From an uncultured Actinomycetes bacterium (lineage in GTDB: Bacteria; Actinomycetota; Thermoleophilia; Gaiellales; JAICJC01), in assembly GCA_963813245.1 (NCBI GenBank), contig CAWEYE010000010.1, positions 185,053 through 249,052 of the forward strand: a stretch of 64,000 nucleotides of DNA, written 5' to 3'. Below are positions 1,540 to 54,150 of the stretch, one piece after another. Numbering within the stretch: the stretch's first letter is position 1; each line of letters begins with the position of its first letter. The notes under the pieces are model-generated. The model was given only the letters and a program-made list of their open reading frames with translations. It made no database searches and was not told the DNA's origin. A program made the position numbers and the translations under genes.

Positions 1540-1570
1540 GGGGACTGTCCCCGGTCGTGGGACAGCCCCC
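1540..1570. repeat. Pair of 13-bp REP-like palindromes
   Basis: ggggactgtcccc at 1540-1552 and degenerate tgggacagccccc at 1558-1570; same family as 6832-6986, 52313 and 54138. Confidence 0.65.
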
Positions 1571-2716: not shown

Positions 2717-2876
2717 GGTGAAATCCTTTGGGTCGGGGTCGGGTGCAACGCCCCTTGTGTTCGTCCCGCGCCGATCCGTGTCGACGGCCGGCGGCGGGAG
2801 CCCGGCTCCCATTGCGGGGTATCTTCACTTGCGAGTTTTCGGTACTGCTCGGGTCCCTCTGCGGTACCATCGGCCG

Positions 2877-4537
2877 GTGCCCGCCGACCTGATCCTGCGA
2901 AACGCGGTCGTGCACACCGTCGCGCGCCCGACGCACCGGCGCCGCCGTCGCGATCGACGCCGGCCACATCGTGGCTGTGGGGAGCGGGCAGGACGTCGAC
3001 GGCCTACGCGGCCCCGGCACCCGCGTCGTCGACCTGCAGGGCGCGCTGGTGCTGCCCGGCTTCGCTGGACGCGCACTGCCACCTGGGCATGAGCGGCCTC
3101 GGCACGACCCAATGCGATCTCGAGGGCAGCCACGGCGCCGACGAGCACCTGCGCCGGATCGCCGCGTACGGGGCGGCGCACCCCGACCGCGAGTGGGTGG
3201 TCGGCGGCGGCTGGTCGATGAACGACTTCCCCGGCGGGACACCGACCGCGGCCGCGCTCGACGCGGTCGTGCCCGACCGGCCCGCCGTGCTCACAAACCG
3301 CGACTACCACGGCGCGTGGGTCAACTCCAGGGCGCTCGAGCTGGCCGGCATCACCGCGGCGACGCCCGACCCTGCCGGCGGCCGGATCGAGCGCGACGCC
3401 CACGGCGCGCCGCTCGGGACGCTGCAGGAGCAGGCGATGCACCTGGTGCTCGACCGGACGCCCGCGCCCACCCACGCCGAGCGCGTGGCCGGCATCCGGG
3501 CCGGCCAGGACTACTACCACCGGCTCGGGATCACGGCCTGCCAGGACGCGCTCGTCGACGCCGACTGGCAGCGCGCCTACGAGCACCTGGCCCGGTCGGG
3601 CGAGCTCGGCCTGCGGGTGCGGGGGGCGCTCGAGTGGGACGCTGGCCGCGGCGACGAGCAGCTCGCCGAGCTGCGTCGAGCGGCGGGCGAGCGGCAGCGT
3701 CGGGCCGGCTCGCGTGCGGCCACGTCAAGTTCTTCCACGACGGCGTGGTCGAGAACCGCACCGCGGCCATGCTCGACCCGTACCTGGACGACGCCGGGCG
3801 GCCGACCGGCCGAGTACGGCATCGACATGTACGCACGCGGCCGACCTGGAGCGGTTCGTGCGGCCTGTGCGACGCGGCCGGCTTCGGCGTCCACATCCAC
3901 ACGATCGGCGACCGGGCGGTGCGCGAGTCGCTCGACGCGCTCGAGGCCGCCGATCGGCCGCAACGGCCGCCGCGACGCCCGCCACCAGCTCGCGCACGTC
4001 CAGTTCGCCCACCCGGACGACCTGCCCCGCTTCGCGCGCGCTCGGGCGTGATCGCAAACGTGACGCCGCTGTGGGCGCGGCTCGAGGAGTACGTCGACCA
4101 AGCTGACGCTGCCGTTCGTCTCGGACACGGCCGCCGCCGGCATGTACCCGTTCGCAAGCATCCTGCGGGCCGGGGGCGCGCTCGCGTTCGGAAGCGACTG
4201 GTCGGTGTCGACGCCGGATCCGCTGCACCAGCTGGCGACCGCCGTCGCCCGCGTCGACCCCGAGGGATCGGCCGCCGAACCGTTGCTCGCCGGACGAGCG
4301 GCTCGACCTGGACGCGGCGATCGCAGCGCACACGATCGGCGCCGCGCACGCCTGCGTGGCTCGACGCGGTCACGGGCTCGATCGAGCCGGGCAAGCTGGC
4401 CGACCTGGTCGTGCTCGACCGCGACCTGTACGACCTGCACGCCGCGCGACTACCTGGGCGCGCGCGTGCTGGGGACGCTGGTCGAGGGCGAGGTCGTGTA
4501 CGCGGCCCCCGAGTCGGAGCTCTCACTCTCGACCTGA
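2877..4537 (+). CDS. Amidohydrolase family 3 (YtcJ-like), multiple frameshifts
   Basis: DAHCH, HGAWVNS, KFFHDG, HTIGDRA, AFGSDW, GSIEPGKLADLVVLD motifs spread over several frames; TACCAT -10 six nt before the GTG. Confidence 0.8.
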
Positions 4538-4540
4538 GCG

Positions 4541-5269
4541 TTAGGCTGCGCGCACAACCACGAGCGTCCCCAGCCGGGCAACCCGGCGCAGGAGCGCGAT
4601 CGCCGGCAGGCCGGCGTGGATGCAGCCGTTGCTGACCGGCCCCATCGGGCCGGGGTGGATCGCGATCGTGTCGCCGCCGGCCCAGGTGGGAGCAAGATGG
4701 GTCTGGTGGGCCGAGAGCGCGAGCGCAAACGGCGCGTACGGGCTGCCGACCGGGAACCGCACCCGGTCAATCACCGAGAACCGGCCGACGGGGGTCGGCG
4801 TGGCCGGGGTGCCGTGCCCGATCGGGAACGACCCCAGGAGGCGGCGGCCGCGCAGCACCCGCAGGCGGCCCCGGGCCAGATCGACGACGACCCGGGTCCG
4901 CGACCACCGCAGGGGGAGCGAGCGCAGGTCGAGATGCACGACCCGGCTGCGCGCGCCCACGGGCACGAGCGCGGAGCCCCGCGTGCCTTTGCGCGCGAGC
5001 ACCGGCACCCACAGCGGCTCGCCGAACTGCGTCTTTGCGGCCACCCGCCCGAAGGGCGTGCGCAGCGGCCGCAGCAGCTTCGCCATCAGATAGGTGCCGC
5101 GGCCGCTCGGCCGGGCCGGCACGTGCCAGACCGCCGGCGCATGGGTCTGCGCCGCCGGCGGCGGAGCATCCCGGCGCACGGGCGCGGGGTGCTCCGCCGC
5201 CGATGCCCCGGCACATGCGGTGCAAACACAGGCGACCACGACGGCCGCGCCCCAGACCCGAAACCCCAT
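4541..5269 (-). CDS. L,D-transpeptidase family protein
   Basis: Signal-like N-terminus; TPTPVGRF; IAIH...SNGCIH catalytic His/Cys motif; TATGCT -10 at 5277-5282. Confidence 0.8.
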   Translation of the reverse strand: MGFRVWGAAVVVACVCTACAGASAAEHPAPVRRDAPPPAAQTHAPAVWHVPARPSGRGTYLMAKLLRPLRTPFGRVAAKTQFGEPLWVPVLARKGTRGSALVPVGARSRVVHLDLRSLPLRWSRTRVVVDLARGRLRVLRGRRLLGSFPIGHGTPATPTPVGRFSVIDRVRFPVGSPYAPFALALSAHQTHLAPTWAGGDTIAIHPGPMGPVSNGCIHAGLPAIALLRRVARLGTLVVVRAA

Positions 5270-5304
5270 CCCGGAAAGCATACGTCGGCGGTCAACCCCT
5301 GCGG

Positions 5305-5310
5305 TATCGT
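5305..5310 (+). promoter_or_regulatory. Putative -10 element for the retron ncRNA/RT transcript
   Basis: TATCGT (TANNNT) ends 5 nt upstream of the first inverted-repeat arm at 5316. Confidence 0.45.
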
Positions 5311-5315
5311 GCGCC

Positions 5316-5477
5316 GCATCCGACGACGCGCCCCGAGGCGACCCGCTCGGCGGGTCTCTCTGGGGCACCCCCAGGGGAACCGGTGTCACCACGCATCGCA
5401 TCGCATGCGCCTCGCTGCGCCTCCGTCGCAGGTCCGCGCACGCAGGACAGGGACAGTTGGGGCGCGTCGCCGGACGC
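5316..5477 (+). ncRNA. Putative retron msr-msd non-coding RNA
   Basis: Closing inverted repeat 5316-5334 / 5459-5477 (17 of 19 complementary); G residues immediately after the 5' arm; two short stem-loops at 5340-5356 and 5357-5377; ends 6 nt before the RT ATG. Confidence 0.65.
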
Positions 5478-5483
5478 TCTCGC

Positions 5484-6828
5484 ATGACGCAGTGGAGCCG
5501 GACGGAGCGCGCCCGGGTCGCCCGCGCGACGGCGGCGGCCTTCCTGGACGGCGATTGGGAGCCCGCCGGCATGGCCACGCGAGCGGCGGCGGCCTTCGGA
5601 CGGCGGCCGCGCTTCATTGCGGGGGTCGCCGCGGAGGTTGCGGCGACCTACCGCGAACGCCCCGGCCGACCGGCCGCGCGAGCTCGCGGCCGTGATCGAG
5701 CGGAACCTCGACCGGCTCGACACCCGCGGCCTGCTCCCCCAGCCGCCGCGGCATGTGCCGACGGCGGTCTTCGCGCCGGCGATGGGGCGGATGCGCTGGC
5801 CGGTGCCCGTGCTCGACACCCCGGCCGACCTGGCCGGGATGCTCGACCTGCACCGTGGCGAGCTCGCCTGGCTGGCCGACCGCCGCGGGCTGGAGCGGCG
5901 CGCCCGCGACCTGCGGCTGCGCAACTACCGTTACCGCTGGCTGGCCCGGCCCGGTGGGCCGCCGCGGCTGATCGAGCAGCCCAAGCGCCTGCTCAAGGAG
6001 ACGCAGCGGCGGCTCCTGCGGGGGATCCTCGAGGCGATCCCGCCGCACGACGCCGCCCACGGCTTCCGCCGCGGGCACTCCGCGCTCACCCACGCCCGCC
6101 GCCACACCGGCCGTGAGGTCGTGCTGCGGTTCGACCTGGAGGACTTCTTCGCCTCGATCCCGGCCGGCCGCGTGTACGGCGTCTTCCGCGGCGCCGGCTA
6201 TCCGGAGGCGGTCGCGGCCGACCTCACCGGGCTCGTCACGAACACGCTGCCCGTCGCGGAGTGGGCGGCGGCGCCGCGGGCGGCCGACCCGGCCGTCGGA
6301 GCGGCACACCACCGCCTGGGGCGGCGGCTGGCCGCGGCGCATCTGCCGCAGGGCGCGCCCACCTCGCCGGCGCTCGCGAACCTGTGCGCGTATCGGCTCG
6401 ACTGCCGCCTGGCCGGGCTGGCCGACGCGTTCGACGCGACCTACACCCGCTACGCGGACGACCTGGTGCTCTCGGGCGGATCGCGCCTGCACGCGGGCGC
6501 CGCCGCGGTGCGGGCCGCGGTCGAGGCGATCGCGCTCGCCGAGGGCTTCCGGGTGAACCCGCGCAAGTCGCAGCTGATGACCCGGGCGGGCCGTCAGCAG
6601 GTGTGCGGGGTCGTCGTCAACGCCCACCCGAATGCCGCGCGCGCCGACTACGACCGGCTGCGGGCCGCGCTGCACGAGGCCGCGCTGCGCGGGCCCGCCG
6701 CCGCCAACCGCGCCGGCGTCCCCGACCTGCGCGCCCACCTGCTCGGGAGGATCGGCTGGGTGGAGGCGCTGAACCCCGCCCGCGGGGCGAAGCTGCGGCG
6801 CCAGTTCGCCCGCATCGACTGGCCCTAG
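5484..6828 (+). CDS. Retron-type reverse transcriptase (~447 aa after removing one C from the C4 run at 5660-5663)
   Basis: RLIEQPK, AHGFRRG, HARRH (retron NAxxH position), DLEDFF, LPQGAPTSPALAN, YTRYADD, VCGVVVN (retron VTG position). Confidence 0.9.
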
Positions 6829-6831
6829 GCC

Positions 6832-6986
6832 GGGGACAGTCCCCAAACACCGGGGACAGCCCCCACGCAGCCTCAGGTGCCTGGCACCGTCGCGGTGCCA
6901 GGCACCGCCCACGGGGAACCGGGGACAGTCCCCCGCTCCAAGAACCGTCACCGAGATGTCACGGCGCTCGTTCGGGGCCTGGCCCC
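6832..6986. repeat. Cluster of six 13-bp palindromes (5-bp arms, CAG/CTG centre)
   Basis: Copies start at 6832, 6852, 6876, 6894, 6921 and 6974 (ggggacagtcccc, ggtgcctggcacc, ggggcctggcccc variants). Confidence 0.75.
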
Positions 6987-6988
6987 GG

Positions 6989-7785
6989 TTAGACGCCGAT
7001 CGGGTGCCAGACGGTCTTTGCCTCCATCAGCGGCTCGATCTCCCACACGCTCTGCCCGGTGGCCGAGCCGCGCACGACCCGCTTCACGTTCTCGGCCGCC
7101 AGCCGCTCGAGCTCCGCGGCGGCGTCGGCCGGCGCGCCGGTGAGGTCGATCGCGTTCACGTCCATGTGGCTCGCCAGGATCTGCGCGACCTCGGCGGAAT
7201 CGCCGGTGAGGATGTTGACCGCCCCGGCCGGCATGTCGCTCGTCGCCACCGCCTCGGCCAGCTCGACCGCGGCCAGGGGATGGGCGCTCGAGGCGACGAC
7301 GACGGCCGTGTTGCCGCCGACGAGCGCCGGCAGGAGCCGCGACACGAGCCCCTCGAGCGCCGGCTCGGGCGGGGCCAGGATCGCGACCACGCCGGTCGGC
7401 TCGGGGATCGTGAAGTTGAAGTACGGCCCGGCGACGGGGTTGGCCCCGCCCAGCACCTGGGCCAGCTTGTCCGCCCAGCCCGCGTACCAGACGACCCGAT
7501 CGATCGAGCGCTCCACTTCGTCGGGCCCGGAGCAGGCCGCCCGAAGGTCGACGGCGCGCGTCTCCATCATCTCGGCCAGCCGGTAGAGCACCTGACCGCG
7601 GTTGTAGGCGGTCGCGCCCGACCACTTCGCGACGGCCGAGCGGGCCGCGCGGACGGCGTCGCGGGCGTCCTTGCGCGACGCGCGGGCGACGTTCTGGCCC
7701 TCGGCCTCGTAGGTGCGGCCCGACTCGGAGCGCGGGAACGCGCCGCCGATGTAGAGCTTGTACGTCTTGCGCACCGGCAGGCGGG

Positions 7786-7789
<4 letters not shown>
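6989..7789 (-). CDS. Short aldehyde dehydrogenase-family protein (NAD-binding part only)
   Basis: KTYKLYIGGAFPRSESGR, YAGWADK, EPTGVV; overlaps the upstream ALDH stop (GTGA). Confidence 0.85.
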
Positions 7790-54137: not shown

Positions 54138-54150
54138 GGGGACTGTCCCC
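54138..54150. repeat. 13-bp REP-like palindrome
   Basis: ggggactgtcccc followed by ggtttt. Confidence 0.6.

Follow-up and report, generated by a model that had tools for sequence, protein, structure and literature searches.

A Reverse Transcriptase and Noncoding RNA Locus in a Thermoleophilia Genome, Most Probably a Two-Part Retron of the Effector-Less Clade 11/Outgroup Lineage

Stand-Alone Retrons and the Locus

Characterised retrons are tripartite defence systems that resemble toxin-antitoxin modules, and the lineages without an effector are the clearest exceptions. Mestre et al. 2020 (PMC7736814) sort retron reverse transcriptases (RTs) into 11 clades, and their account of the clades places stand-alone (msr-msd)-RT cassettes, termed 'orphan retrons', in branches of clades 2 and 11; clade 11 is given there as essentially restricted to Actinobacteria. 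Here we analyse a locus in an uncultured Actinomycetes bacterium of the Thermoleophilia (assembly GCA_963813245.1, contig CAWEYE010000010.1, positions 185,053 to 249,052 of the forward strand). This whole stretch of 64,000 nucleotides is called the window. An RT gene and the noncoding RNA (ncRNA) just upstream of it, at window positions 5305-6828, most probably form a two-part retron cassette of the effector-less clade 11/outgroup lineage.

According to the passages of the Mestre study on orphan retrons, most of their host genomes have no homologues of known retron-associated proteins; an effector in trans or a different mechanistic function is posed there, and some vertically inherited retrons are suggested to be possibly domesticated (PMC7736814). 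In the SPIRE survey of 2026 (PMC13712802), clade 11 is represented by the msr/msd models OutgroupA and OutgroupB, and its entry gives no accessory module. The 2024 census preprint of Khan (PMC10849725), in which retrons of each RT clade were synthesised and tested for RT-DNA, mentions 'intermediate production' for the clades other than 2, 9, 10, 3 and 4. Full-text literature searches found no functional study of clade 11 retrons. The stand-alone architecture is already described for clade 11, and the window holds a further example of it. The locus adds nothing architecturally new, but the comparative data presented below sharpen the problem of the effector-less retrons.

The cassette is made up of the following features.

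5305-5310, + strand: -10-like hexamer TATCGT, 5-6 nt 5' of the first arm of an inverted repeat; the hexamer is conserved in the genus alignment
5316-5477, + strand: retron-type ncRNA (msr-msd), from the RNAalifold consensus of 13 genus sequences; 177.4 bits with covariance model R1
5484-5665, + strand: N-terminal piece of the RT gene (four-helix extension), frame 3, up to a frameshift
5666-6828, + strand: main body of the RT gene (RT domains, YADD, thumb/X-Y region), frame 1, with the stop codon at 6826-6828

The start codon of the RT gene (ATG, 5484) lies 6 nt past the 3' end of the ncRNA (5477), and the G+C content of the window is ~75% in the stretch around the retron.

Reverse Transcriptase

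Judged from profile searches and a predicted structure, the RT belongs to the retron lineage. Pfam RVT_1 matches it at 5e-20. Among the PADLOC models, the RT body is matched best by RT_other (514 bits, 1e-154) and by RT_outgroup (494 bits, 1e-148), a model that carries the label 'retron', and the next one is RT_XIII with 286 bits. The top 25 of the 57 matched PADLOC models are all of retron-type RTs, and RT_other also covers the N-terminal piece, with its profile positions 62-119. When a profile of 77 family members was used as the query of a PDB profile search, the RT of retron Ec86 came first (5e-55), followed by those of Eco2/Ec67, Ec78, Eco7, Ec83 and Eco8. Thirteen rows of retron RTs precede the first group II intron maturase (5hhj, 1.2e-10), which is itself deposited as 'Retron-type reverse transcriptase'. 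The RTs of DRT2 and DRT9 (defence-associated reverse transcriptases) reach 4e-8 and 2e-5, respectively.

The fold points in the same direction. An AlphaFold model of an intact homologue (L002, 88% identical) has a predicted local distance difference test score (pLDDT) of 95 and a predicted template modelling score (pTM) of 0.91. In a Foldseek search with this model, ranks 1-17 are all retron RTs and the first non-retron protein stands at rank 19. Against Ec86, the model gives a template modelling (TM) score of 0.80-0.82 over the Ec86 chain at 27% identity. The original prediction, made from the letters of the window, had placed the RT with the retrons, and PADLOC, the PDB profile search and Foldseek all agree with it. 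The YADD, HARRH and VCG motifs that it named are readable in the translation. The SPIRE survey describes NAxxH in region X and VTG in region Y as retron-specific RT motifs (PMC13712802). The window has HARRH and VCG in these regions, and the family consensus is THAxxH, with an invariant final H, and RQxVxG, with invariant Q and G.

The Noncoding RNA

A 19-bp inverted repeat had been proposed to close the segment upstream of the RT gene. The repeat is present (5316-5334 / 5459-5477, 19 nt long), with 17 of its 19 positions complementary. The repeat alone proves little, since the same scan finds 66 inverted-repeat pairs in 5200-7000, of which this is one, and since the single-sequence fold differs only moderately from shuffles on either strand (z = -3.2 on the + strand and -3.9 on the - strand). 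What makes the repeat significant is its conservation and covariation among related sequences.

Among 13 genus sequences, the ~170 nt preceding the start codon have a mean column identity of 86-88%, and the RT protein reaches 78% in amino acids. In the RNAalifold consensus of these 13 sequences, a closing stem pairs a1 (5316-5336) with a2 (5457-5477), with a core of 5319-5336 paired with 5457-5474. It encloses an msr of three short hairpins (5340-5356, 5357-5377 and 5381-5398) and an msd of one longer hairpin (5403-5443). The two short hairpins of the original prediction have therefore to be replaced by three short hairpins and a longer one, while its observation that the second carries U.G pairs possible on the + strand only holds good. 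These pairs are found at alignment columns 57/77 in 11 of 13 and at columns 59/75 in 13 of 13 genus sequences, and the matching pair of a wide alignment is UG in 70 of its 82 rows. The arrangement is that of the msr-msd layout given by Mestre (PMC7736814), in which the terminal inverted repeats a1/a2 enclose one to three msr hairpins and a longer msd stem-loop.

A covariance model (R1; 169 positions, 51 pairs) was built from the 13 genus sequences and used to search the best 80 of 589 confirmed relatives from species-representative genomes. At E<0.01, R1 matches directly upstream of the RT in all 80 loci, 77 of which also reach E<=0.001. The match is on the strand of the RT in 79 of the 80 loci, and secondary minus-strand matches have at most 20 bits. 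The match at window 5316-5477 is the sole one in the whole genome, which contains one copy of the ncRNA and one RVT_1 gene. The length of the ncRNA varies from 163 to 195 nt across the loci. When 85 sequences (82 distinct rows) are aligned, standard pairs occupy 92.8% of the cells versus 39.7-45.5% with the partners slid, compensatory changes occur in 47 of the 51 pairs versus 21-29 in the slid controls, and 0 of 500 shuffles reach the observed values; this alignment was fitted to R1, which favours the structure and inflates the pairing somewhat, but the margin is still large. The homologues keep the inverted repeat and the hairpins, as the original prediction would have it.

Transcription of the ncRNA from the minus strand was considered, since the two A.C mismatches that a1/a2 have in the window become G.U pairs on that strand. 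It was rejected because the conserved U.G pairs exist on the plus strand only and because the minus-strand matches of the covariance model do not exceed 20 bits.

Several conserved positions suggest how the RNA might be used. The original prediction had noted G residues right after the first arm, and these are G5335, G5337 and G5338. G5337 is unpaired, directly follows the last a1/a2 pair and is G in 98% of the 85 sequences; by analogy with other retrons, it is likely the branching (priming) guanosine. G5456, directly 5' of a2, is G in 100% of the sequences and is the putative first template position for complementary DNA (cDNA) synthesis. In the msd region, the positions C5399, C5402, C5441, A5447, C5448, G5451 and G5456 are 93-100% conserved across phyla.

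A -10 box had also been proposed just before the first arm. The hexamer TATCGT stands there, and a TANNNT hexamer starting 4-8 nt before the model start is found in 64 of 85 homologous loci, but a sigma-70 consensus scan of 5150-7050 called no promoter, and its one terminator-like site lies inside the neighbouring L,D-transpeptidase (LDT) gene. On the strength of its conservation among the loci, and not of the sigma-70 scan, the hexamer at 5305-5310 is a probable promoter element of an ncRNA-RT transcript.

One of the 80 loci (L023) has its ncRNA at 4749-4934 on the - strand, inverted with respect to the RT at 5001-6305 on the + strand and otherwise intact (57 bits). The inversion could have arisen by recombination between the a1/a2 repeats, or it could be a short-read assembly artefact.

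The position of the RNA would also suit a cis-regulatory 5' leader of the RT mRNA that controls translation or stability and acts as neither template nor primer. The a2 arm stops 6 nt before the start codon, so that the stem could occlude ribosome binding, and co-conservation with the RT would be equally expected of a leader. Such a leader is nevertheless extremely unlikely. The closed ends, the three msr-like hairpins, the longer hairpin and the G at the stem end reproduce the msr-msd layout described by Mestre (PMC7736814), the RT is of a lineage whose members use such RNAs as primer-template, and a translational leader would not tolerate the inversion seen in L023, where the ncRNA is intact.

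DRT2 and DRT9, of the UG class, likewise consist of an RT and an ncRNA without a separate effector gene, and an action of this kind would mean that the cDNA itself, repetitive or homopolymeric, is active and that no branched multicopy single-stranded DNA (msDNA) serves as a sensor. Such an action would fit the absence of linked partner genes throughout the family, and the primary sequence of the msd is unusually conserved across phyla, which suggests selection on the nucleic-acid sequence itself. However, retron RTs are by far the nearer relatives of the window RT, both in the PDB profile search and in the Foldseek ranks given above. Two hallmarks of retrons, inverted repeats at the termini and a conserved G where the stem ends, are present in the ncRNA. 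It is without the direct repeats needed for template jumping, and its varying length argues against a fixed coding repeat. DRT2 and DRT9 also have a different ncRNA architecture and cDNA chemistry. We consider this explanation very unlikely.

Absence of a Linked Partner Gene

The neighbourhoods of the RT were surveyed in 93 loci, using stop-to-stop open reading frames (ORFs) of at least 90 aa within 4.5 kb on either side (4,492 ORFs, BLASTP E<1e-10). Outside the genus (77 loci, L017-L093), the widest ORF family is found in just 9 of 77 loci, on either side and either strand and 0.6-5 kb away from the RT. This family includes an ORF of the window ~4.4 kb from the RT, which, read from its translation, looks like the ATPase of an ABC transporter. 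The remaining recurrent clusters consist of shadow ORFs, which coincide with either the RT or the ncRNA. In a relaxed survey (ORFs of at least 45 aa, 1.5 kb on either side, E<1e-4, 78 loci), the top three clusters (26, 21 and 14 loci) are shadow ORFs of the ncRNA and nothing else occurs in more than 7 loci; partners that are small or very fast-evolving could escape such ORF-clustering surveys.

Fused longer forms of the RT were sought among proteins of 784-2235 aa, and no recurrent one was found. Of the 13 matches of this search, the closest three are singletons that carry unrelated additional domains, probably as a result of run-on gene calls. The other ten (P0004-P0013) are distant 'retron-type reverse transcriptases' of ~900-1060 aa, with 33-36% identity to the query along about two thirds of its length. 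RVT_1 is the sole domain recognised in them, and their long additional stretches carry no annotation.

The original prediction of a retron with no effector gene is borne out by the survey of the homologues. The missing effector is a trait of the family and not the result of local decay, and the co-encoded or fused effector that defines tripartite defence retrons is missing from the family of the window.

Distribution of the Cassette

The 80 best loci come mostly from Solirubrobacterales/Thermoleophilia, Acidimicrobiia, Nocardioides and other Actinomycetota. Further carriers among them are Myxococcus, Corallococcus and Pyxidicoccus (Myxococcota), and records of Planctomycetota, Dormibacterota and Pseudomonadota. 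The records of Nocardioides zeae JCM 30728 and Solirubrobacter soli DSM 22325 are among the cultured carriers.

Within the genus, the cassette has one chromosomal site. All 15 close relatives (L002-L016) have a divergent YkuD LDT gene upstream of the RT, and in 11 of these 15 a short gene of the aldehyde dehydrogenase (ALDH) family follows downstream; this synteny holds within the genus only. The occurrence of the cassette is patchy. It is present in 11 of 24 genus genomes and, when those with a completeness of 90% or more and a contamination of 5% or less are counted alone, in 4 of 7. In a sample of 289 high-quality genomes from the class, 6 have it, and these belong to 2 of 12 families. In three genus genomes without the RT (G009, G012 and G013), the best LDT homologues are 50-52% identical, so that orthology is uncertain, and neither an ALDH gene nor the ncRNA is found within 1.5 kb of them.

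The N-Terminal Extension

In the AlphaFold model of L002, residues 1-80 form four helices that are followed by an ordered linker. This N-terminal domain is present in all 77 aligned homologues, and the only positions conserved in at least 90% of them are L21, W25, W44, P60, L67 and W105. The domain has no Pfam match. A Foldseek search with its model gave no significant fold match (E >=2.8), the best hits of a wide VIA-align search were generic helical bundles (best Z 4.7), and an ESM Atlas search with the N-terminal 115 residues returned unnamed clusters only, at values up to 0.80, within the range of noise. The lack of fold matches is no evidence of a new fold.

The original prediction had offered three options for a retron without a linked effector, namely that it acts alone, that it acts with a partner in trans, or that its N-terminal extension is the effector. 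The last of these is the least supported, with conserved L, W and P positions only and no significant fold match. The extension is unlikely to be an enzyme or effector because the conserved residues and the model suggest a small helical bundle without conserved polar residues. We interpret it as a module with a structural role, or one for nucleic-acid binding or oligomerisation.

Comparison with Known Retron Types

The cassette shows no architectural difference from the stand-alone cassettes of clade 11. Like them, it has the ncRNA directly upstream of the RT, no associated protein and an Actinomycetota-type host, although the copy in the window is frameshifted. The family as a whole shows the clade 11 trait of having no specifically associated protein and occurring mainly in Actinobacteria. 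The loci related to the window nevertheless span more phyla than the Actinobacteria given for clade 11 by Mestre, in agreement with the table of the SPIRE survey (PMC13712802).

Retron-Eco5 (Ec107) belongs to the other branch described as being mostly without a linked effector, which lies in clade 2 (Mestre, PMC7736814). Its RT is of a different clade, and the PADLOC model RT_Ec107-like scores 157 bits with the RT of the window versus 514 bits for RT_other. We know of no N-terminal extension in the Retron-Eco5 branch. The hosts are also different, with clade 2 described as mostly gammaproteobacterial by Mestre (PMC7736814) and clade2_Ec107like listed mainly in Bacillota in the SPIRE survey (PMC13712802).

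The closest solved RT by profile and by fold is that of Retron-Eco1 (Ec86; 7v9u, 7v9x, 8qbk), which follows the same a1/a2-msr-msd logic. This RT has ~320 aa and lacks the ~115-aa N-terminal helical extension of the window family. Ec86 is tripartite, with an adjacent effector that is an N-glycosidase, whereas no effector is linked to the RT in the window family. Type XIII retrons (clade 10; Mx162/Mx65/Ne144) provide the next-best PADLOC model, the 286 bits of RT_XIII. Their vertical inheritance, as described by Mestre, resembles the synteny of the window element within its genus, but the linked SWIM/winged-helix and HEAT/ARM-repeat genes that they are reported to have (PMC7736814) were not found beside the window family.

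A number of points weigh against assigning the locus to the clade 11 retrons. NCBIfam retron_St85 matches the RT with 161 bits, below its cut-off of 235 bits. The retron motifs are variants, HARRH for NAxxH and VCG for VTG, in which the positions are kept and the N and the T are not. The assignment to clade 11 equates the PADLOC models RT_outgroup and RT_other with the clade 11 of Mestre, as the shared naming in the SPIRE paper suggests. The ncRNA has no Rfam match at E<=10, and an Rfam scan of 4500-7500 at the same threshold gave just two weak, unrelated matches, both outside the ncRNA. The pairing counts come from the fitted alignment mentioned above. Among the sequencing runs searched for the locus, no RNA run is listed and the best DNA runs share at most 0.20 of the sampled words. 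Finally, the RT gene is frameshifted in the window and this copy may be inactive.

The Frameshift in This Copy

A nucleotide alignment with six relatives reveals one extra base in the CCCCGG at 5660-5665, which splits the RT gene. The ATG at 5484 opens ~60 codons in one frame, and the body of the RT continues in another frame to its stop codon. In 10 of 12 genus homologues (tblastn), the N-terminus and the RT body form a single ORF of 442-451 aa, and two frames are seen in the window and in L010 only. Programmed frameshifting was ruled out, as these 10 of 12 homologues have a single ORF.

Were the +1 frameshift genuine, this organism would produce no RT, and its ncRNA would be a mere conserved leftover of a dead element. 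Besides the extra base itself, other broken copies would agree with such a loss. L010 (G010:C10:406162-410343) has a different 1-nt insertion and a TGA in the RT, and two of the 80 distant loci (L073 and L075) have one in-frame stop each. The element is moreover dispensable, as 4 of the 7 high-quality genus genomes and 6 of the 289 from the class carry it. On the other hand, both halves of the RT gene are open, without stops or further indels, all the catalytic motifs are kept, and the identity to intact relatives is 88%.

Circumstantial evidence from the surroundings of the frameshift speaks for an indel of the assembly. The Amidohydro_3 gene at 2870-4530 (+), ~1 kb upstream, shows at least 8 frame switches against the intact homologue of L015. 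Its segments are mostly 66-96% identical to this intact relative, with one 36-residue chunk at 50%, and the switches are probably a patch of assembly indels. The LDT gene, the two ALDH genes and deoC have no frame switch. The RT is broken in two genomes whose assemblies are highly contiguous but reach completeness scores of only 84% and 67%, a combination typical of indel-prone long-read bins. Because of the amidohydrolase switches, the clean LDT, ALDH and deoC genes and the low completeness of the two contiguous genomes, an assembly artefact is the likelier origin of the RT frameshift than true decay. A dead relic is thus an unlikely description of the locus. Contigs of four soil or rhizosphere runs contain fragments of relatives, mostly 90-95% alike, and their negligible depth at 5627-5687 leaves the frameshift site unaddressed.

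Proposed Mechanism and Significance

By analogy with characterised retrons, the following mechanism can be proposed for a two-part cassette with an intact RT. A promoter with the -10-like box at 5305-5310 most likely drives a single transcript of the ncRNA followed by the RT gene. The ends of the ncRNA would pair as a1/a2 and enclose the three msr hairpins and the msd hairpin. Binding of the RT to the msr hairpins would be followed by priming at the 2'-OH of G5337 and by leftward reverse transcription of the msd, beginning at G5456 and running across the hairpin at 5403-5443. The expected product is a branched msDNA of roughly 55-60 nt.

Since no effector lies beside the cassette in any of the lineages examined, the complex of RT and msDNA may either work with a partner in trans or have a function of its own. 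Our preferred guess, held about as firmly as it is doubted, is that it works with an unlinked host or effector protein. A function of the complex itself seems less likely and is proposed only tentatively. One specific form of it is a self-sufficient retron in which the RT-msDNA particle acts without a toxin partner, for instance as a sensor of, or a sink for, some conserved factor of the cell or of a phage; this we find doubtful. Such a particle may include the four-helix domain and the msd sequence that is conserved across at least four phyla, and some lineages may pass the element on stably at one and the same place in the chromosome. If true, this would mean a non-abortive or even a non-defence use of msDNA.

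The ncRNA and the RT are conserved as a unit across several phyla, and the candidate priming G, the msd sequence and the four-helix domain provide handles on their function. The cultured carriers make the function of effector-less retrons directly testable.

Neighbouring Genes and Dispersed Repeats

The surroundings of the cassette contain the following features.

4541-5281, - strand: L,D-transpeptidase (YkuD) gene, divergent; Pfam YkuD 4.5e-13
6989-7789, - strand: short gene of the aldehyde dehydrogenase family, convergent; Pfam Aldedh 7.6e-33, profile positions 21-233 of 461
6830-6845, 6850-6865 and 6919-6934, no strand: dispersed palindrome CCGGGGACAGTCCCC, three copies, outside the retron
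6876-6906, no strand: perfect 14-bp hairpin, outside the retron

These Pfam matches confirm the divergent LDT and the convergent ALDH that the original prediction had named as neighbours. The start codon of the LDT gene (5281, - strand) is only ~24 nt from the -10-like box of the retron. Unless the LDT mRNA is leaderless, its promoter must therefore overlap with the region of the ncRNA. The short Aldedh protein encoded at 6989-7789 has 266 aa, is 76-97% identical in relatives and adjoins a full-length ALDH. These features suggest a truncated paralogue that has been conserved, and not a gene fragment.

Only palindromes had been seen downstream of the RT, and this is correct for 6830-6934, which holds copies of a palindrome dispersed over the genome and not specific to the retron, together with the 14-bp hairpin. 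The palindrome CCGGGGACAGTCCCC, which is similar to repetitive extragenic palindromic (REP) elements, has 68 matches with at most 1 mismatch in the 4.4-Mb genome versus 1 for the reversed control, and 9 matches in the window versus 0.17 expected. It is also found at window positions 1540-1552 and 54138-54150, and it often occurs in clusters of 2-4 copies. At the hairpin of 6876-6906, with the arms GGTGCCTGGCACCG and CGGTGCCAGGCACC, the soil metagenome contigs show a spike in depth of up to 383 with many different loose ends. This hairpin appears to be a second widespread short repeat or a terminator-like element.

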